DNA of 64,000 nucleotides from an uncultured Planctomycetales bacterium (GCA_964489065.1 CAZAXH010000001.1:238592-302591); one strand, 5' to 3'. Shown: positions 4,443 through 64,000, numbered from the stretch's first letter. Translations and numbers: made by a program. The notes: a model not told the origin generated them from the letters alone.

Positions 4443-5504
4443 CTACATAGATTTATCCAACAACTGCGCAAATTCTTCCTTATTCTTGACATAAACCATG
4501 GCTGTTTCGTATGTAATCACGCCGTCCTGATACAACCGCTGCAGGGATTTGTCCATCGTATGCATCCCATAGGCGCTTCCGGTTTGGATCGCCGTGGGAA
4601 GCTGTTCGATAGCTTGCTCCCTAATCAGATTCCTCACGCCGGGCGTCGCGATCATGATTTCCGTCGCGAGAACCCGCCCCTGGCCGTCCGCACGCGGCAA
4701 AAGAATCTGGGAGGCCACCCCCTGCAAAGCGGAGGACAGCTGCAATTTGACCTGCTGTTGCTGATGAGGAGGGAACGCGTCGATAATACGTTCTATCGTC
4801 TGCGGCGCGTCCGGGGTGTGCAGTGTCGCCAGAACCAAATGGCCTGTTTCAGCCGCCGTCAAGGCTGTCGAAATAGTTTCGAGATCGCGCATTTCTCCGA
4901 CAACAATAACGTCGGGGTCCTGCCGGAGACAACGCTTAAGGGCTTCCGCGAAGCAATTGGTGTCCCGGTACACTTCCCTCTGTTTAATAATCGATTTTTT
5001 GTTGAAATGCACATATTCGATCGGGTCCTCAATCATAATCACGAGGTTTTCCCGTTCTTCATTAATGAGGTTGATCATCGAGGCCAATGTGGTTGTTTTT
5101 CCTGTCCCCGTCGGGCCAGTAATCAGGACCAGCCCGTTTGGTCTCCGCGCCAGGTCCACGATGACCGGCGGTAATCCAAGTTCCTCCATATTAGGGATAA
5201 AAATAGGGATTCGCCGGAACGCCGCTTCAGCGGCGCCGCGCTGCAAATGGACATTAACGCGAAAGCGATCCATCCCGGAAAGCGCCAGGGAAAAATCTAA
5301 TTCCCGGTCCCGCTCAAAGATTTCCTTTTGGCTATCCGTCAGGATACTGTAAATCATCTTTTTCAGTTCATCCCGGGACAGAGGATTCTTATTCGTCAAG
5401 ACCAATTTGCCATCAATCCTTAAAACAGGCGGCGTGTCATACGTCAAGTGAAGGTCCGAAGCCCTCTTTTCTATTGTTAAAAGAAGAAGATCTCTTAACT
5501 CCAT
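4443..5504 (-). CDS. pilT: Type IV pilus retraction ATPase PilT
   Basis: 353 aa. Walker A GPTGTGKTTT, typical PilT N-terminus (LHLTYDTPPVLRIDGKL), and the AIRNLIRE-like motif GVRNLIREQ. Confidence 0.85.
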   Translation of the reverse strand: MELRDLLLLTIEKRASDLHLTYDTPPVLRIDGKLVLTNKNPLSRDELKKMIYSILTDSQKEIFERDRELDFSLALSGMDRFRVNVHLQRGAAEAAFRRIPIFIPNMEELGLPPVIVDLARRPNGLVLITGPTGTGKTTTLASMINLINEERENLVIMIEDPIEYVHFNKKSIIKQREVYRDTNCFAEALKRCLRQDPDVIVVGEMRDLETISTALTAAETGHLVLATLHTPDAPQTIERIIDAFPPHQQQQVKLQLSSALQGVASQILLPRADGQGRVLATEIMIATPGVRNLIREQAIEQLPTAIQTGSAYGMHTMDKSLQRLYQDGVITYETAMVYVKNKEEFAQLLDKSM

Positions 5505-48734: not shown

Positions 48735-50084
48735 TTATGGCTGTTCCTGGGTAATGATATGCGGCGTCAGGAAAATAAGCAAATCCGTCTTAACCGATGT
48801 CTTTTCCGTCTTCTGAAAAAGCAAGCCAAAAATCGGGATGTCGCCTAAAATCGGGAGCTTCTTTTTCACATCCGTACTCTGGTCCTTAATCAAACCGGCG
48901 ATAACCAGCGTCTCCCCGTCTTTGATCATAACGCTCGTCGTCACTTCTTCGCTGCTCAACTGCGGCATCGACGTATTTTCCACTGTCACATAATCCAAAA
49001 TCGCGGTGATCTTCGGATTAATATCCAAAGTCACATGCCCGGCGTTGTTCACGTGCGGGGTCACCTCAAAAATAATACCAATATCCTTGAATTCCCAGTC
49101 GCTCACCTGCAGTTTGGCCTGGTCTTCATTATAACTGTATTTGGGAATCGGGTACTGGCTCCCAACGGTAATCTTGGCCATTTTGTTGTCCAGGGTCACA
49201 ATCCGCGGGTTAGACAGAATATTGGTATCGCTCCGGGTCGTCAGCATTTCAAAAACAGCCTGCGCCTCAGCAAAACTCAAAGTTCCAAGCGTGAATCCGG
49301 AAGAAACCGTGTCGGGTTGAAAACCCTCGTCACTGTCCCCTATCGCCGGGAAATTATAGGGCGAATATTTATTAGATGTGTCTATCGTAAATGGCCACAT
49401 ATGCGGACGGGCCGATCCCGTAACAGTCGCTTTGGCCACCCAATCAATCCCCAGCTTATCCGTGTTGCTTAAGGTGGTTTCGACAATCTTCGCCTCGATC
49501 AGAACCTGCGGAGTCGTTTTATCCAGCTGTTCGATAACCGCCGAAATCAACTCCAGGTTTCCCGGGATATCTCGGACGATCACGGAGTTGGTGCGCTCAT
49601 CCATATTAATGCTGCCCCGGTCCGTTTTCATTTTATCGATAGATTCCTTGACATCCGCCGCCTTCGCGTAATTCAGGACATACGTTTTGGTTACCAGCGG
49701 TTCCTGGTCCGCCAGCAACTTGGCGTCTTCCCGTCTTTTTTTCAAATTGTCAATCGTCGTGACGGTAATGATATTCCCCCTCTGTTCATACGCGTAGCCG
49801 TATGTCTCCAGGACGACCTGGAGCGCTTTCTGCCACGGGACATCCTGCAATTTAATCGTGATCAAACCCGTCACTTCCGGGCCGGCCACAATATTAACAC
49901 CGCTCTTGTAAGAGAGGATCCGCAGGACATTCTGAATATCCGCGTCCCTGAAATCCAGGCTGACATTCCCCCCCTCCGACATGGAAAGATTTTCCGGAGA
50001 ATCTGCTGTTGTGCCGTCTTGCGCATACACAGGTGTCATCATCAAGGCCAAAAAAATAACCAGTATTACCCATCGTCTAAACAT
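48735..50084 (-). CDS. pilQ: Type IV pilus secretin PilQ
   Basis: Signal peptide, AMIN/N0-like N-terminus, and a C-terminal secretin domain ending ...LLIFLTPHII. Confidence 0.8.
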   Translation of the reverse strand: MFRRWVILVIFLALMMTPVYAQDGTTADSPENLSMSEGGNVSLDFRDADIQNVLRILSYKSGVNIVAGPEVTGLITIKLQDVPWQKALQVVLETYGYAYEQRGNIITVTTIDNLKKRREDAKLLADQEPLVTKTYVLNYAKAADVKESIDKMKTDRGSINMDERTNSVIVRDIPGNLELISAVIEQLDKTTPQVLIEAKIVETTLSNTDKLGIDWVAKATVTGSARPHMWPFTIDTSNKYSPYNFPAIGDSDEGFQPDTVSSGFTLGTLSFAEAQAVFEMLTTRSDTNILSNPRIVTLDNKMAKITVGSQYPIPKYSYNEDQAKLQVSDWEFKDIGIIFEVTPHVNNAGHVTLDINPKITAILDYVTVENTSMPQLSSEEVTTSVMIKDGETLVIAGLIKDQSTDVKKKLPILGDIPIFGLLFQKTEKTSVKTDLLIFLTPHIITQEQP

Positions 50085-50085
50085 A

Positions 50086-50475
50086 TTAGTCCTCCTTTTT
50101 GAGTTTTAGAATAACTCGTTCTTGACCTTTTTGTAATGTCACGCGGTTCTCTTTTATATCCTTAACGGTGAACACACCGATAGATTCGTCCTTCTGCAGA
50201 ATTTTTCCGTTAATAATCGCCACGCTTTTCCCTCCGTCCCCGACGTAAATCCCTTCCAGAACCAAATCCGTCGCCAAAAGATCCTTCTCCAAGTTAACAA
50301 TCATCCCCTTAGAATTCACCAGCGGCCAGAAGGGGTCGCGTTTGTCATGGCTGTCGTACACATAGTCGGCGCTGGCCTCCTCAGCCTCATCCTCGGCGCC
50401 GCCGCAAGGCGTAACGCCGGCCAAGGTCACGATCAGCAGAATTGTCCAAAATCGGATTTTTGTCTTCCTCATCAT
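50086..50475 (-). CDS. pilP: PilP-like pilus assembly lipoprotein
   Basis: 129 aa; signal peptide with Cys and a beta-rich C-terminus. Assigned by position between pilO and pilQ. Confidence 0.45.
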   Translation of the reverse strand: MMRKTKIRFWTILLIVTLAGVTPCGGAEDEAEEASADYVYDSHDKRDPFWPLVNSKGMIVNLEKDLLATDLVLEGIYVGDGGKSVAIINGKILQKDESIGVFTVKDIKENRVTLQKGQERVILKLKKED

Positions 50476-51074
50476 TTCTGCCCGCCTTCAAACACAACCA
50501 GTTCGATCGCCAAATTAATGGATGCCGTCTGTTGGTCTTCCCGGCCTGTTTCAATTGAAAAATTCGGCAATCGCAAAAAAATACCGTCTCGCTCCAGTTC
50601 ATTCAAAAACCGGCCGAACGGATGATAACCGCTCTCCGCTTCTATAACAATAGGAATAGAAAAATATTTCCCCTCATTATTCTCCAGAACCGGATCGTTG
50701 ATGGCCGTCTGCGGTAAAATCTGTTCTATTTTTACACCATGTTTATCCGCGATCCTCGAAATATTTTCCAAAAGAAACGGGATATCCTCTTTACGCTTAA
50801 TCCTCCGCTGCAGATTCTGATACTTGTCTTCCAGCCGTGACAATTCTTTTTTATACTGGTTAACCCGAAGGATATTATTCCTGGTTTCAGCCGTTTCCCG
50901 GTTCAATTCTTCCAGCTTGGGATTAATGGCCTGCAGAGTCTTCAGTTGAAACTGCAAGGGGAACAGATAGAAAATCACAAGAATCACCGTAAAGACGCCC
51001 GCCAATAAGAAGAAAGGGTTCTTTTCGCTGATTTTATTCACCACGGACCCCATCTGATTCTTGATATCACTCAT
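50472..51074 (-). CDS. pilO: PilO-like pilus assembly protein
   Basis: 200 aa; N-terminal TM helix followed by a coiled-coil and ferredoxin-like region. Assigned by position. Confidence 0.55.
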   Translation of the reverse strand: MSDIKNQMGSVVNKISEKNPFFLLAGVFTVILVIFYLFPLQFQLKTLQAINPKLEELNRETAETRNNILRVNQYKKELSRLEDKYQNLQRRIKRKEDIPFLLENISRIADKHGVKIEQILPQTAINDPVLENNEGKYFSIPIVIEAESGYHPFGRFLNELERDGIFLRLPNFSIETGREDQQTASINLAIELVVFEGGQK

Positions 51075-51101
51075 TTCTTTTACCCTTATCCCGGGGGGCC
51101 T

Positions 51102-51686
51102 CTACAAATCCACCCGGATCGTAAAATCCGCAACCGGTGTTCCGTTGATTGTCCGGCTTTTAATGTACTCCAGCTCTATTTCACTAAAGTCCCTCATAAA
51201 AGCATGGTTGTCTTTTAAACTGGTATTAAAACTGTGGACGCTGATCATTTCCGTCTGTGTTTTGGAAACAGCGCTGCCGTTGATCAGCAAAATCCCGCCC
51301 TCCAGCTGCATTTTGGTTAACCACACTCCGCGCGGAAGATTATCGCTGATCTCGTTTAATTTCTGTGACCACACAAAATCCCGGCTCCCCAGAACTTCTT
51401 CCAGAGGAGCGAGTTTGCCGTTAATCTCTTTAATCTGCCCGACATAGCGCTCTGTGTTGATTCTCTGCGGAACGAGTTCGGCCAGCTCAGACATCAAACG
51501 CTTGCGTTCGGCCAGTTTCAAGGAAATCATAAATTGCAAAGCGCCCGCGCCCAGGGCCAGGACAACGATAAACAGGCCAGTATAACCAATAATCGCCTGT
51601 TTCGACAACCCGGCGGACGGCTCACTGGAAGGGAGAGCTTTCCTCTTTTTTTTCAATTGAGGAGGGACTAAATTTATTTCAATCAT
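51102..51686 (-). CDS. pilN: Type IV pilus assembly protein PilN
   Basis: MIEINLVP N-terminal motif (INLLP-like) followed by a TM helix. Confidence 0.65.
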   Translation of the reverse strand: MIEINLVPPQLKKKRKALPSSEPSAGLSKQAIIGYTGLFIVVLALGAGALQFMISLKLAERKRLMSELAELVPQRINTERYVGQIKEINGKLAPLEEVLGSRDFVWSQKLNEISDNLPRGVWLTKMQLEGGILLINGSAVSKTQTEMISVHSFNTSLKDNHAFMRDFSEIELEYIKSRTINGTPVADFTIRVDL

Positions 51687-51733
51687 AGATTATCCCCTGC
51701 TTTACCTCATTGTATCTCCATCGCTGAACATGC

Positions 51734-52798
51734 TCATGAATACAAAGACAACCCGAGGGCCACGGACAGAAACGCCGTGTTGGACTCCAAATCCTCCCTC
51801 TTAGCCGTGTCTCCCTGTGTCAGCCAAGGAAACGGGTTCCAGCGTGACACTTTGATATCAAGATTTTTAAAAATAATATCGTCCATCCCTTCCAACTTAG
51901 ACGTTCCGCCGGTTAAAAGCAAATGGGTGATACCCACATTCTTCTCTGTCATAAAGTAGTCAAAAGACAACCGGAGTTCCGAAACCAGATTAATAATCAC
52001 CGATTCGCAGGCGTCCAGCACCTTGACCAACTGGTCTTTGGGGTTCCTCTTCAAACTCTCCGCTTCTTCATACCGCAGGCTCAAGGAATTCGTTAAGGCC
52101 TTCGTAAAGTCTCTGCCGCCGATAAAAACATCCCGGGTAAACAACGGCATCCCCTGGACCATAATGGTAAGATTGCTGACAACCTCCCCGATGTCCAGGA
52201 TAGCGACGGCGGCATGCTTGGAGGCGTCCGGCGCTGTTTCCGGATTTTCCAGCATTTTCGGGTTCAACACGTTCATAATATTGGAAATCGCAACCGCGTT
52301 AAGAGAAATAAAATTGGGATGGTACCCCAGTTCCGTGAGAAAGGCGACGCGGTCGTCGATGATTTCTTTCTTTGCGGCGGCCACCAGAACCAGCATTTTA
52401 TTATCTTTTAACGTGGTGTTCAGAATGTGGCAATCCGTGTAGATTTGGTCCAGAGGGAAAGGGAAATATTTGTCCGCCTCAATGGCGAAACATTTTTTCA
52501 AATCTGCGAGGGGCATGCGGGGAAGCTCAATATAGCGGATCAGGGTGCCTTTTCCGCTGACGGCGGTGAAAGGATCCATAGCCTCAGCCGAAAGGTTGCG
52601 CAGAGTTTGTTTGACCGCCTTCTTCTGGTCGCCCCCTTCCACAGGAACGACCGCCCAGTCCAGAAGCGTATAGGCGGATCCGGCCTTTTTTACTTTTATA
52701 CCTTTACAGGCAAACGTTCCGATATCCAGCCCGACCGTCACTGCGCCGGCTTTCTCCGGGACAACTCCTTTAAATGCTTTTTTAAAAAAACCTGGCAT
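51734..52798 (-). CDS. pilM: Type IV pilus assembly ATPase-like protein PilM
   Basis: 354 aa actin-like fold; VGLDIGTFACKGIKV. Confidence 0.8.
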   Translation of the reverse strand: MPGFFKKAFKGVVPEKAGAVTVGLDIGTFACKGIKVKKAGSAYTLLDWAVVPVEGGDQKKAVKQTLRNLSAEAMDPFTAVSGKGTLIRYIELPRMPLADLKKCFAIEADKYFPFPLDQIYTDCHILNTTLKDNKMLVLVAAAKKEIIDDRVAFLTELGYHPNFISLNAVAISNIMNVLNPKMLENPETAPDASKHAAVAILDIGEVVSNLTIMVQGMPLFTRDVFIGGRDFTKALTNSLSLRYEEAESLKRNPKDQLVKVLDACESVIINLVSELRLSFDYFMTEKNVGITHLLLTGGTSKLEGMDDIIFKNLDIKVSRWNPFPWLTQGDTAKREDLESNTAFLSVALGLSLYS

Positions 52799-53396: not shown

Positions 53397-53789
53397 CTAC
53401 ATACCTCCCGTCAGGATGCCTCCGGTCGTAATCGTGAATGTCGTTGTCCCGGACGTCCCGACCGTAACCGGCGTTGCCGTAAACGTGTAATAACCGGCAT
53501 TGAACACACAATTAAAATTAAACCCGGACACTGTCGTGCCGCAATAATTGGTGTTGATATACGGCGGTGTCGCGCCAGTCAAAGACGTTTCATTCGCTGG
53601 ATAGTTCCCGGTATTGGCCGTCGCGAATGTCTCCGAGGATGTTGACAATGACCGCAGCGTACTTTTTGCCAGCGCGTCATTAGCGGAGATCTTAGCCCTT
53701 AACAGGTTAGGAATCGCGATAGCAGCCAGTAAAGCGATAATGGCCACAACGATCATGATTTCGACGAGCGTAAAACCTTTTCTGTTCAT
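53397..53789 (-). CDS. pilA: Type IVa major pilin
   Basis: Prepilin leader plus GFTLVEIMIVVAIIALLAAIAIP. The C-terminus is Thr/Gly-rich with two Cys forming a disulfide loop. The start is at MNRKGFTLVE. Confidence 0.85.
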   Translation of the reverse strand: MNRKGFTLVEIMIVVAIIALLAAIAIPNLLRAKISANDALAKSTLRSLSTSSETFATANTGNYPANETSLTGATPPYINTNYCGTTVSGFNFNCVFNAGYYTFTATPVTVGTSGTTTFTITTGGILTGGM

Positions 53790-53970: not shown

Positions 53971-54150
53971 AAAAAAAAATCTGTCCTTCTTCAAGAGGGA
54001 CAGATCACTATTTATGCCTATATCTTTCCTGATGGCAACTGGCTGCCCTCTTTCGGCCGGAACTCCGCCTCCTGTAGGGCCCTATAGCTTTGTGTCCCAT
54101 CCTTACGAATGGTTTACCTTTTGCATCACCTGATTGTCAAGTCTACTGAA
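53971..54150 (-). ncRNA. Candidate ~170-nt small RNA transcription unit with a promoter and intrinsic terminator but no ORF
   Basis: A TTGACA-18-TATACT promoter at 54151-54180 drives ~170 nt of noncoding sequence. It ends in the hairpin UCUGUCC-11 nt-GGACAGA followed by U9 (53971-54004). Confidence 0.35.
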
Positions 54151-54180
54151 AGTATACAACCCGCCTACTTAAAATGTCAA
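54151..54180 (-). promoter_or_regulatory. Sigma70-type promoter (TTGACA-18-TATACT) 18 nt downstream of the coiled-coil gene stop
   Basis: It uses the same hexamers as the tRNA operon promoter at 37463-37491. Confidence 0.45.
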
Positions 54181-54197: not shown

Positions 54198-55772
54198 TCA
54201 TTTCCGACGAAGCCCCTTATCCCGAGCTTTTAAAAGCCCCCCGACTTTTTTCTGCAGCCCCTGATTTTCGCGCTGCAGGACCTTCAAATAGTCATTCAAC
54301 TGCGTTTCTTCCCGGGAAAAACTTTCCGCGGCTTTCCGCTCTTCTTCATAACGGGCTTCAATAATCGACAGGGAGCTCGTCAGAACCGCCTCTCTTAATT
54401 GTAAAGCCTCCACGTCCCTTTTCAGTTTCTGACTTTCAGAAACCGGCACCGGGGCGTTATTATCTTCTTCATCCGGGACCCAAGAGGCCTCCGCGGGCTC
54501 GTCCAGATCAATATCCTCCAGAAGCCGCGTCAATTCTTCTTTGATCTCCTGCGCGGACGGCGAAGCCCCCTGGCCCTTCTGGGCTCTCTGACAATCGGCC
54601 TGCAAAGCAGCAATCTCTTTTCCCAGCAACTTTTCTTTCTTGCGATAAGCCTTGGTTTGAATCTGTCCCTTTCGAATAGACAGGTTCAAATCGTCGATAT
54701 CGTCTGCCAATTGTTCCCGGGAAACGGCCCATGAAGCGGAAGACGGAGATGGGATCCAAAAAGCCGCCGCGTCCTGCAAAGGAAGCCTTTCGCTCAAAAC
54801 CTGTTTTTTCCTCCTCAACAGATCCGTTTCCTCCGCCAGGACCCGGCGGAAAATAACCGCCTGTTTTTCCTGCTGCCGCGAGGCGACGCGAACAACCTCC
54901 TGCAGGTCCTGGATATCAGCAAAAATTTTCTCTAACTGCTCCTTATCACTCCGCAGCCGCGCAATATCCTCTTGAAGACCGGCTAACGCCGCCTTGTCTT
55001 TAAGGGCGGCTGTCTCCCGTTGCTGGTTGAACTTTTCCAAAGTCCCTTCCGCGGCCGACAAACGGCCTTGACTCTCCGCCACCCTCGGCAGCCAGGCCTC
55101 CTTTTGGGACTTTAATTCCTCCGTCCGGTTTTTTTGCGACGATATTTTTTGTTGAAGCTTGCGGACACTCTCTTTTCTCCTGTCAATATCGTTTCGCAAA
55201 GCATCACACCGCGCGATCAACGCCTCCTTCTCTTCCTGTTTGTCTCTCTGTAGCGGTTGCGCACTCTTTTGCTGAAGGCGTTTCTGAAAAAAAGACACTT
55301 CCTCTTGCAGCAACTGGGCTTCCTCCTGAAGGCGTTTCTGCTTGTCAAGCATGACGCTCATTTGCACTTCTTTATCGTCCCGGTTCACATCATGATTTTG
55401 CCCTGCTTTCCGTAAGGCCTCCAGATCCTTCAGCAAATTATCCCGGTCTTCCTCCTGCAAGGTCAGGGCCTCCCGCAGAACCTTTTGATCCGCAAGAAGC
55501 TGATCCCTCTCCTGCTGAAACCCGGCCAGATCTTGCTCATATCGCTCAAGGGCCTGGCGCAAAGCCTTATTCTTCTCTCCCATCTGCGTGTTCTTCCGTA
55601 AGGCTTCCCCCATCGCCTCTTTCAGATCCCGGACAGCGGCCGCCAGCATCTGTTCGGCGGGCGCCGCCGGCTCAGCCGCTTCCAACTCCTGTGTGGCGGC
55701 CTGCTGCGGAAGGCAGAGCCCCCACACGCCGGCCAATACAAAAAAAGCATATTTGCGCAGAACCACAGACAT
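54198..55772 (-). CDS. Secreted long coiled-coil protein of unknown function within the pilus operon
   Basis: 524 aa. N-terminal signal peptide (MSVVLRKYAFFVLAGVWGLCLPQQAATQ), then ~480 aa of E/Q/K/R/L/A-rich heptad-like sequence. It starts 44 nt after the pilC stop. Confidence 0.6.
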   Translation of the reverse strand: MSVVLRKYAFFVLAGVWGLCLPQQAATQELEAAEPAAPAEQMLAAAVRDLKEAMGEALRKNTQMGEKNKALRQALERYEQDLAGFQQERDQLLADQKVLREALTLQEEDRDNLLKDLEALRKAGQNHDVNRDDKEVQMSVMLDKQKRLQEEAQLLQEEVSFFQKRLQQKSAQPLQRDKQEEKEALIARCDALRNDIDRRKESVRKLQQKISSQKNRTEELKSQKEAWLPRVAESQGRLSAAEGTLEKFNQQRETAALKDKAALAGLQEDIARLRSDKEQLEKIFADIQDLQEVVRVASRQQEKQAVIFRRVLAEETDLLRRKKQVLSERLPLQDAAAFWIPSPSSASWAVSREQLADDIDDLNLSIRKGQIQTKAYRKKEKLLGKEIAALQADCQRAQKGQGASPSAQEIKEELTRLLEDIDLDEPAEASWVPDEEDNNAPVPVSESQKLKRDVEALQLREAVLTSSLSIIEARYEEERKAAESFSREETQLNDYLKVLQRENQGLQKKVGGLLKARDKGLRRK

Positions 55773-55815: not shown

Positions 55816-57015
55816 TTAAATAATCTGAGTAATGCTAATAATCGGCAAGAACAGCGCAATGACAATAAAACCAACCACGATACCCAAAAAACCAATAATG
55901 AGCGGCTCAATAATGCTCGTCAAACCCGCCACGGCCGCGTCCACCTGATCGTCATAAAAATCCGCGATCTTCCCAAGCATCTTCTCCAACTGTCCGGATT
56001 TTTCACCAATGGAAATCATGCGCGTCACCATCGGAGGGAAAACACCGCTTTTGACCAGTGGGGTCGCAATGCTTTCCCCTTCGCGGACATTGTTTTTCAC
56101 ACTGATCACCACATTTTCCACCACCCGATTGCCACTGGTCTTCCCGACGATATCCAAAGATTCCAGGATCGGGACGCCGGTCTGCAGCAACGTCGCCAGC
56201 GTGCGGCTGAACCGGCTGATAGCCACTTTCCGGATCAATTCGCCGAAAATAGGCACCCGCAATGACATTTTATCAATGGCCTCCCGGCCCCGGTCGGTTT
56301 TATACCACCGGCTTAACAGAAATCCCAACAAAACAATCCCTCCGATGAGATACAAAAGGTTTTTCTTCAGCATGTCGCTGGCCCCGATCAGCATCTGTGT
56401 CATGGCCGGCAATTCCGAATTAAAAGAATCGTAAATGGAGGCAAAAGTAGGGACGACTTTGACCAGCAGGATAATGGTAATGATGATGGCCATAAACACA
56501 ACGACCGTTGGATATATCAGGGCTGATTTGACTTTGCGTTTCAGCTTGAGTGTCTTTTCGAGGTAGGAGGAGATGCGGTCCAATATGGCGCTCAATACCC
56601 CGCCCGTTTCCCCCACTTTGACCATATTCACAAAAAGAGTGTCAAAAGCCTTGGGATGCTTGGCAAACGCCGCCGACAAACTGCTCCCCATCTGGATATC
56701 GTCCCGCACAGCGATGACGACACTCTGAAAATAAGATTGCGTGATCTGCTCCTGCAAAGCGTCCAGGGCCTGAAGAATCGGGATCCCCGCGTCAACCATC
56801 GTAGATAACTGCCGGGAAAAGATAACCAGATCTTCCGGCTTAACGGACTTCTTGACAAAAACCGTTTTGGATGCCACCTTAACCGGCTTCACGTCAATGA
56901 TTGTCAGGTGGCGCTTGCGGAGTTCCTCTATAACCGCAGCCTGATTCTCGGCGCTGATCTTCCCGACAACATTGCGCGCCCCCTGATCCTTGGCGACATA
57001 TTTAAAAGTCGGCAT
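55816..57015 (-). CDS. pilC: Type IV pilus platform protein PilC (GspF family)
   Basis: 399 aa with two GspF repeats and three TM segments. Confidence 0.85.
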   Translation of the reverse strand: MPTFKYVAKDQGARNVVGKISAENQAAVIEELRKRHLTIIDVKPVKVASKTVFVKKSVKPEDLVIFSRQLSTMVDAGIPILQALDALQEQITQSYFQSVVIAVRDDIQMGSSLSAAFAKHPKAFDTLFVNMVKVGETGGVLSAILDRISSYLEKTLKLKRKVKSALIYPTVVVFMAIIITIILLVKVVPTFASIYDSFNSELPAMTQMLIGASDMLKKNLLYLIGGIVLLGFLLSRWYKTDRGREAIDKMSLRVPIFGELIRKVAISRFSRTLATLLQTGVPILESLDIVGKTSGNRVVENVVISVKNNVREGESIATPLVKSGVFPPMVTRMISIGEKSGQLEKMLGKIADFYDDQVDAAVAGLTSIIEPLIIGFLGIVVGFIVIALFLPIISITQII

Positions 57016-57225
57016 AACCTATTCCTTTTGCGATATGATCCAAAAGTAATTGTACCATCATTTCACCCCGGATAAAAAGTGTTTCAATAAATTTTTTTAT
57101 GAATTTCATTTTACGAGCCGCGAAAAACCCATCAGGTTGCCGGACGATAACGCGTTCCCCTCTTCTCCTTCCTTTATCTTTATATTTTTATTATTTCCCG
57201 GGAGAAAGCCAAACCCGGCGGCGTC

Positions 57226-58959: not shown

Positions 58960-60726
58960 TCAGTCCGGGGTTTCAGCCGGAGTCTTCTCCAGGGGCTCGT
59001 CAGCCGCAGTGACGCGCAGGACCTCTTCCAGCGTCGTCAGGCCGGCCAGGGCTTTGGCCATGGCATCCTCCCGCATCGTGGTCATACCTTCCCGTCGCCC
59101 CATCATTTTAATCTGCAGTTCCCCGGCCCGCTGTAAAATGCCCTTACGGACCGGCGGCGTAAGGACCAGGATTTCCGAAATACCCACCCGCCCGCTGTAG
59201 CCGGTCTTCAGACAGTTCTTGCATCCTTGTCCGCGGGACAGCCTGATGTCCCCTTTCTTGCCCTGCGCCTTCAACCCCACTTTCTCCGCCATCTCCGGAG
59301 ACAGGACAAATTCTTCCTTGCATTTCGGGCAGATCCGCCGGAGAAGGCGCTGCCCCACGACCGCGATGACGGAGGAACAAATCAGAAACGGTTCCACCCC
59401 CATATTGACCATACGCACAATCGACCCCGCCGCCGTGGTCGTATGCAGGGAACTCACCACGAGATGCCCGGTCAACGCGGCTTTAACCGCAATATCCAGG
59501 GTTTCACTTTCCCGGATTTCTCCAATCATAATGACATCGGGGTCCTGCCTCAAAATAGACCGCAGGGTTGAGGCAAACGTCAGGCCCACGCTGGGTTTCA
59601 CGTTCACCTGGTTCAGTCCCGCCATCTGGTACTCCACGGGATCCTCCACGGTCACAATATTTTTTCCCGGTGAGTCAATATACTTCAAAATCGAATACAG
59701 GGTCGTTGTCTTCCCGCTGCCCGTCGGGCCGCAGGACAGGATCATCCCGTGCGGCTTATCCGCGCATTCCTTCAGCCGGCGCAAAGCCTCCGGCTGAAAC
59801 CCAAGGTTATTGATGTCCACGGCCCCCGCGGATTTATCCAGAACGCGGAGCACGATCTTTTCCCCAAAAATCGTCGGGAGGACATTGACGCGAAAATCAA
59901 CCTCCTTGTTCCCGGACAGGATCGTCCGGAACCGCCCGTCCTGCGGAATGCGCCGCTCCGAGATATCCAAATTAGACACGACTTTCAGCCGGGAAATAAT
60001 CGCCAGGTGCAGGGCCTTGGACATCTGGTCAATTTCGCGGATGACCCCGTCCACCCGGTAACGGATGCGCAATGTTTTTTCCAGAGGCTCAATGAAAACG
60101 TCGCTGGCTTTCGCCATAACGGCCTGTTGGATGATGGTGTCCGTTAATTTGATCAAAGGGGCGTCCTGGGAAATATCCTCGACCGAAACTTTTTCCGAAT
60201 CCAGGTCCTGCTCTTTGACCAGCTCCAGTTCTTCGGCGTCCCGCATGTCCTTAATGATGCTTTCCAAAGTTTCTCCCGACTCCACCGGAGAACCCTGTGT
60301 GTAACAGCGCTCAATAGCATCCGCCAGTTGAGTCGAGCGGGCGATGATCGGCGTGATGCTTAACCCCGTCAATGCCTTCACATCATCGATAACAAAAATG
60401 TTCAAAGGATCAGCCATGGCGAGGGTCAGGTTCCCGCCCATTTTGGACACCGGCATGATTTGATATTTCTGCGCCACGTCCCGCGGGATCAGTTTCACGA
60501 CACTGGGATCGATTTTAAGCCGGGAAATATCTATCGGGGGGAGGCCCAATCCTTCGCTGAGGATATGGGTCAAATCATCTTCACTGATCAGGTTCATCCG
60601 GACCAGCACCTGGCTGAGGTCACCGCCAGAGTTCTTCTGTTCCAAGAGAGCCCTGTCCAAATCTTCCTGTTTGATAATATTATCTCTCAACAGGATTTGC
60701 TGTAACCGTTCTTTTAAGGAAAACAT
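58960..60726 (-). CDS. Type IV pilus assembly ATPase PilB/GspE family (paralog 1)
   Basis: 588 aa. T2SSE_N domain, Walker A GPTGSGKTTT, and tetracysteine CPKCK...CKNC. Confidence 0.85.
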   Translation of the reverse strand: MFSLKERLQQILLRDNIIKQEDLDRALLEQKNSGGDLSQVLVRMNLISEDDLTHILSEGLGLPPIDISRLKIDPSVVKLIPRDVAQKYQIMPVSKMGGNLTLAMADPLNIFVIDDVKALTGLSITPIIARSTQLADAIERCYTQGSPVESGETLESIIKDMRDAEELELVKEQDLDSEKVSVEDISQDAPLIKLTDTIIQQAVMAKASDVFIEPLEKTLRIRYRVDGVIREIDQMSKALHLAIISRLKVVSNLDISERRIPQDGRFRTILSGNKEVDFRVNVLPTIFGEKIVLRVLDKSAGAVDINNLGFQPEALRRLKECADKPHGMILSCGPTGSGKTTTLYSILKYIDSPGKNIVTVEDPVEYQMAGLNQVNVKPSVGLTFASTLRSILRQDPDVIMIGEIRESETLDIAVKAALTGHLVVSSLHTTTAAGSIVRMVNMGVEPFLICSSVIAVVGQRLLRRICPKCKEEFVLSPEMAEKVGLKAQGKKGDIRLSRGQGCKNCLKTGYSGRVGISEILVLTPPVRKGILQRAGELQIKMMGRREGMTTMREDAMAKALAGLTTLEEVLRVTAADEPLEKTPAETPD

Positions 60727-60734
60727 GACGTTCC

Positions 60735-61190
60735 TTAGGAGGTGGTGGTGCTGCGATATCTCTTAATCGCTTCTTTAATGTCGCTAGCCGTTGAAACAAA
60801 CGTCTGAACACTGCAGCCGGTCAGCATTTCAATATCTTCCACGGCGATACGATTCAGGGGATTCGCCATGGCGACCGTTAAACTTTTTCCGATCTTATCA
60901 ATGGGGATCAAACAGTATTTTTTGCAGACGCCTTCCGGAACCGCGTTGAGGACCTCCTGATCAATCTCATAATTCGACAAAGGAAGGAAAGGGAATCCAT
61001 ACTGACAGGTGAGGGCCTGGGCGATATCTTCCTCCGTGGCGAACTTCAGCTCGACCAGAATTTCGCCGATAAGCCCGCCTTTTTCGTTTTGATAGGCCAT
61101 GGCCATGGCGACTTGCTCCCGGTCAATAACGCCTTTCTCAACGAGCAGTTCCCCCAAATGTTTATTGGATGTGCGTTTGTAATCTTTCAT
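60735..61190 (-). CDS. Stand-alone T2SSE_N / MshEN-like domain protein (151 aa)
   Basis: KHLGELLVEKGVIDREQVAMAMAYQ fits the RLGxxLLxxGLLxxxxLxxxLxxQ-type motif, with G and Q conserved. The rest resembles the N1 domain of GspE/PilB (IPIDKIGKSLTVAMANPLN). Confidence 0.6.
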   Translation of the reverse strand: MKDYKRTSNKHLGELLVEKGVIDREQVAMAMAYQNEKGGLIGEILVELKFATEEDIAQALTCQYGFPFLPLSNYEIDQEVLNAVPEGVCKKYCLIPIDKIGKSLTVAMANPLNRIAVEDIEMLTGCSVQTFVSTASDIKEAIKRYRSTTTS

Positions 61191-61246
61191 ATGTCAGGGT
61201 ATACACCCTCTTTATGATCTTATCTTAAACAAAAATTGCCCTTGAC

Positions 61247-61417
61247 TCAATGAACATTTAGTTTACACAACCCAAGAGAGCGTAAACTAGAAATGCAAAT
61301 TGATCCTCCAGCGCGAGTGAGCCAGGAGAACGAGTCGAAGGATCTTGATTTACTATCCCGCAGCTTGCTGCGGTTAATTGAGTCCAGAGCTTGCTCTGGG
61401 GTTTATATCTTTGATTC
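61247..61417. repeat. Copy 2 of the ~170-bp structured noncoding element (opposite orientation to copy 1)
   Basis: See the copy at 852-1020. It lies between the rodA stop and the MshEN-like gene start. A TTGACT hexamer sits at its upstream edge and an extra hairpin GGCAAAA-AGAA-TTTTGCC sits downstream. Confidence 0.7.
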
Positions 61418-61559
61418 CATTCCCGGGCAAAAAGAATTTTGCCTATTATACAACATATTATCATTCTTATATATAATTTATAAAGAATTGTTTTTAAAAG
61501 CACGTCCCGGGACCGAAGACAGAACCCAAGGGTTGCCGGGCCTTTACAAGGACCCGGGA

Positions 61560-62666
61560 TTAGAAAATCGTGTGCCTCTTGCTTAAATTCAGCAAAACGC
61601 CGATCATAAATAATGAAACCATAAAAGACGTTCGTCCATAACTCACCAAAGGCAGCGTAATCCCCACCACCGGACACATCCCCAGCACCATGCCGATGTT
61701 AATCAAGACCTGTAAAGAGAAAATAACGATCATCCCCACCGCAATCTGCATACCGAAGCGGTCTTTCACTTGTTCTGCCACTTTCAGCCCCGCGTAAATC
61801 ACGACGCCATAACACAGCAAAAAAATCAGCGTCCCCAACAACCCCCACTCTTCTCCAATAACGGAAAAAATAAAATCCGTGTGCCGTTCCGGCAAAAAGT
61901 TCAGCTGATTCTGCGTTCCTGACAGCCATCCTTTCCCCCACAGCCGGCCCGACCCCACCGCAATTTTAGATTGAATAATCGTATAACCGGCCCCTAACGG
62001 ATCAATATTGGGATTCAGGAAAACCAGCAGCCGGTCTTTCTGGTACGGCTTGATAACATGCCAGCCGAACGGCATCAGAACAAGACAAATCATGAGGAAG
62101 CCCAGGATATACCGGTAACGCAGCCCGCTGGCAAACAGCATAAAAATAAAGATCCCGAAAAACAACAAAGACGTTCCCAGGTCGGGTTGCTTGAAAACAA
62201 GCAGCATCGGGACGAGAGTTATCAAAAGAGGCACAACCAGGTCGCGCCACAGCACCCCCACGGGACTGCGGGCCCGGGCAGAAAAAGAGGAACGCCGGTC
62301 GCTGAAATACCGGCCCAACCCGAAGATCAAACTCACTTTCGCCAGTTCCGAAGGCTGGAAGCTGATCCCGGCAATCGAAAACCATCGCTGGGCCCCCAAA
62401 GCGTGCCGGCCGGCGACCAGGACCAGGATCAGCAAGATCACGCTTCCCCCGTAAATAAAATAAGCCATATCATAAAATTTTCTGTAATCCACATGACTCA
62501 GATAAAGCAGCATAAAAAGGCCGAGCACCGAAAAAACAACCTGGTCATAGAAGACTTTGTGGGAAACCCGCACGTTCTGATAAGACGCGCTATACAAAGC
62601 TATCAGGCCAAACGCTATCACCGCGAAGGTAAAAATAAAAATCACCACCCCTATATCTCGGCGCAT
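61560..62666 (-). CDS. rodA: SEDS-family peptidoglycan glycosyltransferase RodA/FtsW (RodA by linkage to PBP2)
   Basis: 368 aa, 10 TM helices, adjacent to mrdA. Confidence 0.85.
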   Translation of the reverse strand: MRRDIGVVIFIFTFAVIAFGLIALYSASYQNVRVSHKVFYDQVVFSVLGLFMLLYLSHVDYRKFYDMAYFIYGGSVILLILVLVAGRHALGAQRWFSIAGISFQPSELAKVSLIFGLGRYFSDRRSSFSARARSPVGVLWRDLVVPLLITLVPMLLVFKQPDLGTSLLFFGIFIFMLFASGLRYRYILGFLMICLVLMPFGWHVIKPYQKDRLLVFLNPNIDPLGAGYTIIQSKIAVGSGRLWGKGWLSGTQNQLNFLPERHTDFIFSVIGEEWGLLGTLIFLLCYGVVIYAGLKVAEQVKDRFGMQIAVGMIVIFSLQVLINIGMVLGMCPVVGITLPLVSYGRTSFMVSLFMIGVLLNLSKRHTIF

Positions 62667-62700
62667 AAAACGATTCCCTCCTTAAAGCAGCAAATCCCTA

Positions 62701-64000
62701 TCACAAAATATCCTCGGCTCTCAGGCGCTGGAACAGCTCCCTCGTCAGGACAACCGCATTATAACTCGACCCGCCATATTCCAGAAACACACAAAAAGAA
62801 ACCCGTCTTTTCCCTTCCAGACTGTATCCCGCAAACCAGGCGTGTTCGTCCCTTCCGGGGACGGATTGAGCGGTCCCTGTTTTTCCAAACATTTTAAACC
62901 CGGGCATATCCAAAATCCGGGCCGTCCCGTAAGGGTCTTTGACGGCCCCCAGGAGCCCTTCCTGAATAATCTTAAAAATCTCCTGGTCAAGGGTCACCAG
63001 CCGGACCGTCGAAAACTGAACAATATCCTGCTCGCCGATTCTCTTAATCAAAAACGGCTGCACCTCTTTCCCGCCGCGGCCAATCGTCGTGTTAAGCCGG
63101 GCAATCTGCAGCGGGGTCGCCAACACTTCCCCCTGACCGATGGAATAATTCAACGTATCTCCCTTGTACCAGCCGGTCGGATTCTTGATCCTCCGGAAAC
63201 GGCGGCTGGGGATAAATCCTTTTTCTTCCGCCGGCAAATCCACATGCGTCACATCCCCCAGGCCGAGCAGCCGGGCGTATTTATACAACTGGTCAGGCCC
63301 GATCAATAATCCCGTATTAAAAAAATACACATTGCAGGAATGGGCAATCGCTTCAATAAGATTCTGGTTGTTATGCACATGCGCGCACCGGAATTGCCGC
63401 TTGCCCAAAGTATAATAACCGGGACAGTGGAACGTCGTGTGTTTGGAAATTTTCTTGTTCGCCAACGCCGCGATACTCACAACGATTTTAAAAATTGAGC
63501 CGGGGGGATACTGCCCCTGAATGGCCCGGTTCAACAGCGGCGCCTCCGGGTTGGAATACGCGGAACTGATCTGCCCCCTCAGGCGATGATCCACAAAGAT
63601 ATTAGGATCATATGTCGGGGAGCTGACCATCCCTAAAATTTCCCCGCTGTCAAAATCCATCACGACGATCGCGCCCTTGCGGGGCCCCAGGGCTTCCTGG
63701 GCGATCTGCTGGATGCGGGCGTCAATGGTCAGATGCACATCCTCTCCGTTTTCGGCCTCCCGGATGCTCAGCAGCCTCACCTGCTGGCCGCGGCTGTTCA
63801 CCTCAATCTGCATCCCGCCCTCTTTCCCTTTAAGATAACGGTCATAATATTCTTCAATCCCGGAATAACCGACAATGCTTAAAGGGGTGTACCCGTAGTC
63901 TTTCAATTTCTCCATTTGGGTCCGGTTGATCTTCCCCACCTGGCCGAGGAGATGCGCCCCGACGCTGCCCATGGGGTAATAGCGCCGGTAATGTTCCTGC
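62701..64000 (-). CDS. mrdA: Penicillin-binding protein 2 (transpeptidase), C-terminal part; N-terminus beyond the window
   Basis: SxxK (GSIFK), SxN (SCN) and KTG (KTGTA) motifs. Confidence 0.85.
   Translation of the reverse strand, partial: QEHYRRYYPMGSVGAHLLGQVGKINRTQMEKLKDYGYTPLSIVGYSGIEEYYDRYLKGKEGGMQIEVNSRGQQVRLLSIREAENGEDVHLTIDARIQQIAQEALGPRKGAIVVMDFDSGEILGMVSSPTYDPNIFVDHRLRGQISSAYSNPEAPLLNRAIQGQYPPGSIFKIVVSIAALANKKISKHTTFHCPGYYTLGKRQFRCAHVHNNQNLIEAIAHSCNVYFFNTGLLIGPDQLYKYARLLGLGDVTHVDLPAEEKGFIPSRRFRRIKNPTGWYKGDTLNYSIGQGEVLATPLQIARLNTTIGRGGKEVQPFLIKRIGEQDIVQFSTVRLVTLDQEIFKIIQEGLLGAVKDPYGTARILDMPGFKMFGKTGTAQSVPGRDEHAWFAGYSLEGKRRVSFCVFLEYGGSSYNAVVLTRELFQRLRAEDIL

Follow-up and report, generated by a model that had tools for sequence, protein, structure and literature searches.

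A stand-alone MshEN protein heading a type IV pilus motor operon: a candidate c-di-GMP receptor acting in trans on PilB ATPases with degenerate motifs

We analyzed a stretch of 64,000 nucleotides (hereafter, the window) from an uncultured Planctomycetales bacterium (GCA_964489065.1 CAZAXH010000001.1:238592-302591), in which a type IV pilus motor operon opens with a gene for a protein of only 151 residues, here termed MshEN-only, followed by two full-length pilus assembly ATPases, PilB-a and PilB-b. We judge it rather probable that MshEN-only is a detached module for binding c-di-GMP (cyclic dimeric guanosine monophosphate), with a role in trans on the pilus motor. Judging by sequence, the ligand-contact signature is, throughout the phylum Candidatus Omnitrophota, retained on such detached proteins and lost from the ATPases encoded next to them; the portions of the literature covered by our search contain no mention of this segregation. 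An earlier note on this DNA had suggested that a detached sensor domain could regulate the two ATPases in trans, an idea that now gains comparative support from the gene order, the short intergenic gaps, a natural gene fusion, and a riboswitch in the same cluster.

MshEN-only is the first gene of an operon with the order MshEN-only, PilB-a, PilB-b, PilC (Table 1), and its product consists of the MshEN domain and nothing else, as the earlier note had claimed. The sole Pfam domain is MshEN (PF05157), recovered over residues 64-149 with 72.8 bits (E = 2.2e-20; cut-off 23.1 bits) by a model that spans the C-terminal subdomain only. The N-terminal region is recovered by the NCBIfam model NF053729 ('c-di-GMP_motif'), a 53-position model of two tandem motifs with a curated cut-off of 38 bits, which matches residues 12-61 over model positions 2-51 with 61.1 bits (E = 6.5e-17); the hidden Markov models (HMMs) thus do not class the protein as a generic N1 domain devoid of the motif, the outcome that the earlier note had named as telling against its proposal. 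The Pfam search returned no match to the T2SSE ATPase domain (PF00437) in this protein, whose chain stops at residue 151, and the PilB equivalog model TIGR02538 aligns at model positions 2-139 of 564 only, from which it follows that MshEN-only is the N-terminal module alone. Its sequence matches in the PDB are exclusively to the N-domains of PilF, PilB, MshE, and XpsE, and its C-terminal subdomain (MshEN_C, residues 64-149) is likely to be a protein-docking surface. Directly 5' of the start codon lies an inverted repeat, AGGGT-ATAC-ACCCT (61196..61209), overlapping a purine-rich GAGGG that could be the ribosome-binding site of MshEN-only; the repeat may be a translational control element or a product of chance. 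A search of positions 60600-61700, which cover the 369-nucleotide leader of MshEN-only, found no Rfam family at E-values up to 1, the sole riboswitch being the one that precedes the pilin gene.

The c-di-GMP-binding unit of MshEN domains was defined by Wang et al. (PMC5013675) as the motif RLGxx(L/V/I)(L/V/I)xxG(L/V/I)(L/V/I)xxxxLxxxLxxQ occurring twice with five residues between the copies. MshEN-only has the same layout, with two 24-residue motifs and a five-residue spacer making up a 53-residue unit: motif I at residues 11-34 (HLGELLVEKGVIDREQVAMAMAYQ), the spacer NEKGG at residues 35-39, and motif II at residues 40-63 (LIGEILVELKFATEEDIAQALTCQ), in which the first Arg is replaced by Leu and the turn Gly by Lys. 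The earlier note had recognized motif I, with its first Arg exchanged for His, and this part of its claim stands; it gave no description of motif II, its numbering of the motif as residues 10-33 has to be shifted by one, and the string that it quoted is 25 letters long. The alignment to the N-terminus of MshE that it had proposed as a check is free of gaps against residues 7-68 of Vibrio cholerae MshE. It equates, in motif I, His11 with Arg9, Leu12 with Leu10, Gly13 with Gly11, Val27 with Leu25, Met31 with Leu29, and Gln34 with Gln32, and, in motif II, Leu40 with Arg38, Ile41 with Leu39, Gly42 with Gly40, Lys49 with Gly47, Ile56 with Leu54, Leu60 with Leu58, and Gln63 with Gln61.

To follow these positions through the family we used per-position logos in V. 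cholerae MshE numbering, which cover 82 loci for MshEN-only, 36 for a second detached paralog, 79 for PilB-a, and 68 for PilB-b. In MshEN-only the Gly at motif position 3 (Gly3) is present in all 82 loci in both motifs (Gly13 and Gly42), and the Gln at position 24 (Gln24) in 76 of the 82 in motif I (Gln34) and in all 82 in motif II (Gln63). The hydrophobic triads at positions 2, 17, and 21 (L12, V27, M31 and I41, I56, L60) are hydrophobic throughout, two of the six being Leu, and are held as L/I/V/M across the 82 loci. Position 1 is His or Gln in motif I (His11 here) and Leu40 in 81/82 loci in motif II, so that neither His11 nor Leu40 corresponds to the consensus Arg or to the relaxed set [RKPN]. 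The weight of each of these positions can be gauged from V. cholerae MshE, in which G11L abolishes binding, G40I causes a 72-fold loss, and Q32A and Q61A each cause a loss of approximately 10-fold (PMC5013675 supplement); all the residues whose loss harms MshE binding most are present in MshEN-only. The GSPII-B domain of Thermus thermophilus PilF, in which motif I begins with Lys and motif II with Leu, binds c-di-GMP at 6 nM, its K167L variant does so at 2 nM, L196R is 4-fold worse, and Q218E is 77-fold weaker (PMC11731258). Since GSPII-B shows the Arg to be dispensable and Leu to be favorable, position 1 of motif II in MshEN-only falls within an extended consensus, and, by this analogy, the missing first-position arginines would not be disqualifying.

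The two ATPases present the converse picture. Two full-length PilB paralogs occur in tandem in the window and in every Omnitrophota locus examined (L001-L084), both with complete ATPase domains and with MshEN motifs from which Gly3 and Gln24 are missing in a manner specific to the lineage. In PilB-a of the window Gly3 is replaced by Gln in motif I and by Ser in motif II, and Gln24 of motif II by Gly; in PilB-b the corresponding residues are Ile, Asp, and Glu. The same holds across the loci: PilB-a never has Gly at Gly3 of motif I (Q/K instead), has Ser at Gly3 of motif II and G/S at Gln24 of motif II, and carries Arg (motif I) and Glu/Asp (motif II) at position 1, while PilB-b has I/L (motif I) and D/E (motif II) at Gly3, Glu at Gln24 of motif II in 68/68 loci, and K/R (motif I) and S/G (motif II) at position 1. 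These changes belong to disabling classes known from MshE and PilF, viz., G40E, which is blamed for the non-binding of Deinococcus domain III (PMC5013675 supplement), and the above-mentioned Q218E. The degeneration that the earlier note had reported for both downstream ATPases is therefore real at the contact residues, Gly3 of both motifs and Gln24 of motif II, although PilB-a scores 47.2 bits against NF053729, above its cut-off, with PilB-b falling below it at 31.9 bits. As PilB-a passes despite its degenerate contacts, an HMM pass alone does not discriminate, and we rejected the NF053729 score as a sole separator of binders from non-binders. This also serves as a warning for annotation: all three proteins match PF05157 and PilB-a passes NF053729 too, but only one of the three keeps the contacts.

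MshEN-only has 2620 relatives in the database searched, the best 120 of which are all 148-165 residues long with 72-95% identity and, where an organism is named, belong to Candidatus Omnitrophota. A scan of one genome per species recovered a relative in 323 genomes; the best 80 of these are all metagenome-assembled genomes (MAGs) of Omnitrophota and include a sludge-digester MAG with a 99% match to MshEN-only. The top 150 representatives of a search of 1.8 billion proteins include many single-domain proteins (145-210 residues), indicating that the stand-alone architecture is common, and many with multiple MshEN repeats. A plain MshEN-alone architecture is not listed in Supplementary Table 4 of Wang et al., which has only PA3740 (MshEN with a divergent N1) and MshEN_N-only forms. 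Gene order, established by calling open reading frames (ORFs) and by BLAST with the window proteins, is fixed in approximately 80 Omnitrophota species as PBP2, RodA, a GGDEF-domain gene in some, MshEN-only, PilB-a, PilB-b, a second detached MshEN in some, PilC, pilin, and PilMNOPQ. Among 50 species with all of the genes, the mean pairwise identity is 0.70 for the N-terminal and 0.74 for the C-terminal subdomain of MshEN-only, as against 0.70-0.71 for the PilB ATPase cores, 0.53-0.61 for the PilB N-domains, 0.66 for PilC, and 0.63 for RodA. MshEN-only thus matches the ATPase cores and exceeds the PilB N-domains in conservation, and is not a decaying fragment. A pseudogene or split-gene artifact was rejected, as 323 species-level genomes carry the ORF in intact form, PilB-a lies in a different frame in the window, and the conservation equals that of the ATPase cores.

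The second detached MshEN paralog, of approximately 150 residues, lies between pilB-b and pilC in 35 of 64 species (e.g., L001 14036..14497). It has Gly3 and Gln24 in both motifs in 36/36 loci, with L/F/R (motif I) and Y/F/L (motif II) at position 1. The window does not encode it, having in its place a gap of 210 nucleotides (57016..57225); neither in this gap nor in that between rodA and MshEN-only (61191..61559) could a remnant of the second detached MshEN or of the GGDEF-domain gene be found, and in the window organism the paralog was either lost or never present.

The placement of MshEN-only at the head of the pilus ATPase module, likewise claimed in the earlier note, is confirmed, and the gene is translationally coupled to PilB-a: its TAA stop codon (60737..60735) lies 8 nucleotides ahead of the PilB-a ATG (60726), with a GGA Shine-Dalgarno-like element overlapping the stop, and across the loci the stop-start gap is 8 nucleotides or less in 51/79, with a 1-nucleotide overlap in 24. 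A locus from another metagenome (L086 8001..10298) encodes the two as a single polypeptide, the 765-residue (MshEN)2-T2SSE protein P0134, whose residues 4-148 correspond to MshEN-only (43% identity) and residues 193-758 to PilB-a (48% identity over 580 residues). Its second MshEN domain is degenerate like that of PilB-a, and its gene is followed on the 3' side by those for a second PilB and then PilC. By the Rosetta-stone argument, this fusion suggests that MshEN-only works with PilB-a. In the first domain of P0134, motif position 2 is Thr and motif II is interrupted by 4 inserted residues; its binding may hence be unlike that of the detached form. On a further metagenomic contig, detached MshEN genes occur as a tandem pair, followed by a gene for a 550-residue product without a Pfam record, perhaps a PilB.

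The same fusion admits of another reading, namely that a (MshEN)2-PilB has been split and MshEN-only is its leading half, a constitutive, non-regulatory N-terminal part of PilB-a whose separate translation is incidental. P0134 has the domain order that such a split would predict, the stop-start gaps are tiny or overlapping, and PMC5013675 Supplementary Table 4 provides precedents in the form of (MshEN)2- and (MshEN)3-T2SSE architectures. However, a split lasting in approximately 80 or more species, with the free piece conserved beyond the PilB N-domains, suggests selection for the free form, and about half of the species carry the second detached MshEN with its invariant Gly3 and Gln24. We therefore hold the split to be improbable, and, even if it were real, it would be compatible with ligand binding.

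Table 1. Features of the pilus cluster in the window (coordinates counted from the first nucleotide of the window)
Feature	Coordinates	Strand	Basis
MshEN-only gene, first of the pilus motor operon	60735..61190	(-)	ORF, 151 residues, ATG start, TAA stop
Codons for residues 11-63, MshEN_N c-di-GMP motif region	61002..61160	(-)	NF053729 match, alignment to MshE and PilF GSPII-B
Codons for residues 64-149, MshEN_C (T2SSE_N1-type) subdomain	60744..61001	(-)	PF05157, AlphaFold2 secondary structure
PilB-a, type IV pilus assembly ATPase, 588 residues	58960..60726	(-)	PF00437 447.6 bits, PF05157 81.8, TIGR02538 634.6
PilB-b, second full-length PilB, 569 residues	57226..58935	(-)	Pfam, NCBIfam, motif logo
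PilC platform protein	55816..57015	(-)	PF00482 222 bits, NF052607 425 bits
Coiled-coil-like 524-residue ORF, signal-peptide-like N-terminus, Glu/Lys/Gln-rich	54198..55772	(-)	no significant Pfam family
Near-consensus sigma-70 promoter TTGACA-18-TATACT	54180..54151	(-)	5' of aptamer
c-di-GMP-I (GEMM-I) riboswitch aptamer	54031..54128	(-)	RF01051 58.4 bits, gathering 35, full model length
Terminator-like 12-bp hairpin + T9 run	54005..53971	(-)	minus-strand sequence read directly
Type IV pilin gene, MNRKGFTLVEIMIV...	53397..53789	(-)	PF07963 N_methyl 36.2 bits
pilM, pilN, pilO, small ORF, pilQ secretin	48735..52798	(-)	PilM_2 151 bits, Secretin 161.5 bits; same order in related loci

Further along the cluster, the coiled-coil ORF is followed by a c-di-GMP-I riboswitch aptamer and this in turn by the pilin gene, with approximately 240 nucleotides separating the aptamer from the pilin ATG at 53789; the hairpin and T9 run that come directly after the aptamer form a putative expression platform. 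Immediately 5' of its first helix, in an unpaired position, the aptamer has a G that we take to be the c-di-GMP-specifying G20. Rfam detects the same aptamer in 6 of 7 related loci, and a covariance model built from those Rfam matches recovers it in 36 of the 45 loci extending far enough, in every case on the strand of the operon and mostly 200-400 nucleotides ahead of a prepilin ORF. The coiled-coil ORF, which sits between pilC and the riboswitch, has BLAST relatives at the same position in a subset of the loci.

A gene for a HAMP-GAF-GGDEF membrane protein is found between rodA and MshEN-only in 28/76 species (e.g., L001 8571..10004), often overlapping the start of MshEN-only by 4 nucleotides; the window has here a 369-nucleotide gap (61191..61559) in place of this gene. 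From its signature, described below, the protein is probably a sensor or receptor and not a cyclase; we rejected it as a local source of c-di-GMP and do not count it as support. In another locus (L064 13919..18963), a canonical GGEEF protein of 298 residues and a 1383-residue AGDEF protein are encoded between pilB-b and the second detached MshEN gene. The riboswitch, here and in those 36 loci, and the GGEEF protein within one of the operons point to c-di-GMP acting on this locus.

This context bears on the possibility that, with the guanine-stacking Arg replaced, MshEN-only senses another nucleotide, such as cyclic GMP-AMP (cGAMP) or some other cyclic dinucleotide. MshE itself binds cGAMP weakly (PMC5013675), and position 1 of motif I is here His or Gln. 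Nevertheless, we think this highly improbable: guanine recognition in MshEN is by the backbone amides after Gly3 and by the leucine triads (Wang et al., PMC5013675), the former conserved here and the latter kept as L/I/V/M, and the riboswitch of the cluster fits the c-di-GMP-I model.

For a structural view we used an AlphaFold2 model of MshEN-only, built from 49 sequences, with a mean predicted local distance difference test score (pLDDT) of 89 and a predicted template-modeling score (pTM) of 0.80. It shows a four-helix bundle (helices 10-18, 24-37, 41-47, and 53-64) followed by an α/β subdomain; residues 1-7 are disordered, with pLDDT below 50, and helix 1 begins at Lys10, one residue ahead of the motif. 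The only significant Foldseek matches in the PDB are to MshEN, GSPII, and XpsE-N structures, with probability 1.00 for 5HTL, 8PDK, 9G1W, and 2D28.

A number of observations weigh against c-di-GMP binding. At the level of the motif, neither His/Gln as the first residue of motif I nor Lys in the turn of motif II is admitted by the motif of Wang et al., even in its relaxed form, and Val27, Met31, and Ile56 stand in place of triad leucines; swaps within the hydrophobic triads are described as interchangeable, yet L29V in MshE costs 4-fold (PMC5013675 supplement). At the level of the locus, the adjacent GGDEF proteins of related species have a uniformly degenerate signature, with [GAD][DE]HEF where GG[DE]EF would be canonical, and no RxxD I-site. 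At the level of structure, the best superposition of the model, by the template-modeling score relative to the query (TMq), is with the GSPII-A domain of PilF (9g1w; TMq 0.85, root-mean-square deviation 1.6 Å), with poorer fits to liganded MshE (TMq 0.68) and liganded GSPII-B (0.62). GSPII-A (residues 1-154 of Thermus PilF) has a near-consensus motif and fails to bind c-di-GMP (PMC12002112).

These observations could be accommodated by MshEN-only being an adaptor blind to c-di-GMP, i.e., a rigid 'landing pad' that recruits or bridges PilB, PilM, and PilC in the manner of GSPII-A, with the motif conserved for the folding of the bundle. In addition to the closest structure being GSPII-A, neither motif starts with Arg, Lys takes the place of the turn Gly47, and the C-terminal subdomain is the most conserved part of the protein. 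However, the non-binding of GSPII-A is put down to an N-capped extra turn on helix 1 and to subdomain contacts, along with the substitution of His33 and Arg62 for the two Gln, Ala41 for Gly3 of motif II, and a Thr at the Ncap (PMC12002112). The substitutions and the capped turn are absent from MshEN-only: its Gln34, Gln63, Gly13, and Gly42 hardly vary among the loci, and at the position equivalent to the Ncap it has Arg6 (R/K in the family) and not Thr, Ser, or Asp. The pocket of MshEN-only would accordingly appear to be free of a GSPII-A-type block, both in the sequence and in the model. With these defects absent, residues 1-7 disordered, the model being a prediction of the apo form, and the two subdomains known to reorient upon ligand binding, we treat the resemblance to GSPII-A as weak evidence, which keeps the adaptor reading alive. 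Further, the Gln side chains that serve the ligand only are kept in the detached proteins and lost in the PilB N-domains, although these are folded alike; folding alone would thus hardly account for the conservation. On balance, we regard a c-di-GMP-blind adaptor as unlikely, if far from negligible.

Under the reading that we prefer, in which MshEN-only would be the c-di-GMP receptor of this Omnitrophota pilus machine, the N-terminal four-helix bundle (residues 11-63) would bind one c-di-GMP through the backbone amides after Gly13 and Gly42, the side chains of Gln34 and Gln63, and both hydrophobic triads, with His11 and Leu40 stacking on the ligand. The C-terminal N1-type subdomain would dock on the motor, with PilB-a as its most likely partner; the protein is co-translated with PilB-a and, in one related lineage, forms a single polypeptide with it. 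Because both PilB N-domains have lost the ligand-contacting residues, the detached domain would supply c-di-GMP control of pilus extension in trans, with the c-di-GMP-I riboswitch of the same cluster setting the transcription of the pilin. The analysis shows the domain identity, the conserved motif, its degeneration in the ATPases, the synteny, the translational coupling, the fusion, and the riboswitch; we infer from them the binding of the ligand and the partner, and c-di-GMP might either activate or inhibit.

The elements of such an arrangement are already known separately: free-standing MshEN receptors (PA3740), mixed multi-MshEN ATPases (PilF), and trans relays to PilB N-domains (FimX-PilZ). 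With V. cholerae MshE (PDB 5HTL; Wang et al., 2016, PMC5013675) MshEN-only shares the two-subdomain fold, the 24 + 5 + 24 layout, the Gly3, Gln24, and triad positions, a basic N-terminal tail, and the tie to a type IV pilus motor; it differs in being unfused, in having His/Gln and Leu where MshE has Arg in both first positions, in the Lys at the motif II turn, and in the change of several triad Leu to Val, Met, or Ile. GSPII-B of T. thermophilus PilF (PDB 8PDK, PMC11731258) offers a comparable arginine-free c-di-GMP site whose motif II likewise starts with Leu, and is also one of several MshEN modules serving one pilus ATPase, beside degenerate sisters. GSPII-B, though, belongs to the PilF chain itself and has a motif II shorter by one residue, whereas here the putative binding module forms a polypeptide of its own, the degenerate ones remaining attached to the ATPases.

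A receptor of this free-standing kind has its precedent in Pseudomonas aeruginosa PA3740, an MshEN protein without an ATPase that is a reported c-di-GMP binder, is reported to affect surface motility, and appears among the experimentally characterized proteins in PMC5013675 Supplementary Tables 3-4. In contrast to MshEN-only, it represents a beta/gamma-proteobacterial family with a highly divergent C-terminal subdomain, and that source makes no mention of a position as the first gene of a pilB operon. Cyanobacterial CdgR, which we had entertained as a stand-alone GSPII protein, was discarded, being a ComFB-domain protein. In the Xanthomonas FimX-PilZ-PilB relay (PDB 7LKM, 7LKO), separate proteins docking on a non-binding PilB N-domain convey c-di-GMP control, and the AlphaFold2 model of MshEN-only superposes on the PilB-N chain with TMq 0.65-0.67. 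Unlike here, the sensor in that relay is a degenerate EAL protein (FimX), the adaptor is a PilZ protein, and there is no detached MshEN. In Clostridioides difficile, the leader of the major pilin gene pilA1 contains a c-di-GMP riboswitch of class II; the one described here is of class I (RF01051) and shares its cluster with a candidate detached protein receptor.

Cell-cell contact in the Omnitrophota, an uncultivated group of often ultra-small bacteria with a presumed dependence on hosts or prey, has a prime candidate in their type IV pili. If the detached domain is indeed a receptor, c-di-GMP control over the pilus would operate on two levels throughout a phylum, via a riboswitch over the pilin transcript and via a stand-alone sensor over two motor ATPases that would no longer sense it themselves. 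This would constitute a natural 'split' version of the MshE/PilF design, and, with sensor and motor available for mixing as separate proteins, a clean system for studying the signaling from an MshEN domain to an ATPase ring. More speculatively, the detached MshEN proteins, i.e., MshEN-only and, in about half of the Omnitrophota, the second paralog between pilB-b and pilC, might be diffusible, c-di-GMP-loaded selectors of which PilB engages the PilM/PilC platform, a proposal to which we give little credence at present. Were it to hold, one pilus could be switched by the c-di-GMP level between uses, e.g., host or prey attachment on the one hand and DNA uptake or motility on the other; to our knowledge, such a receptor-swapping mechanism has not been described for any type IV pilus.

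Two observations concern the genomic surroundings of the pilus genes. A PilT-type retraction ATPase of 353 residues (4443..5504, (-); PF00437, 159.5 bits) is encoded approximately 55 kb from the pilus cluster, beside housekeeping genes. On the other side, mreB-mreC-mreD-PBP2-rodA directly precede the pilus operon on the same strand, both in the window (61560..63972, (-)) and in L001 and L003, the loci with enough upstream sequence.

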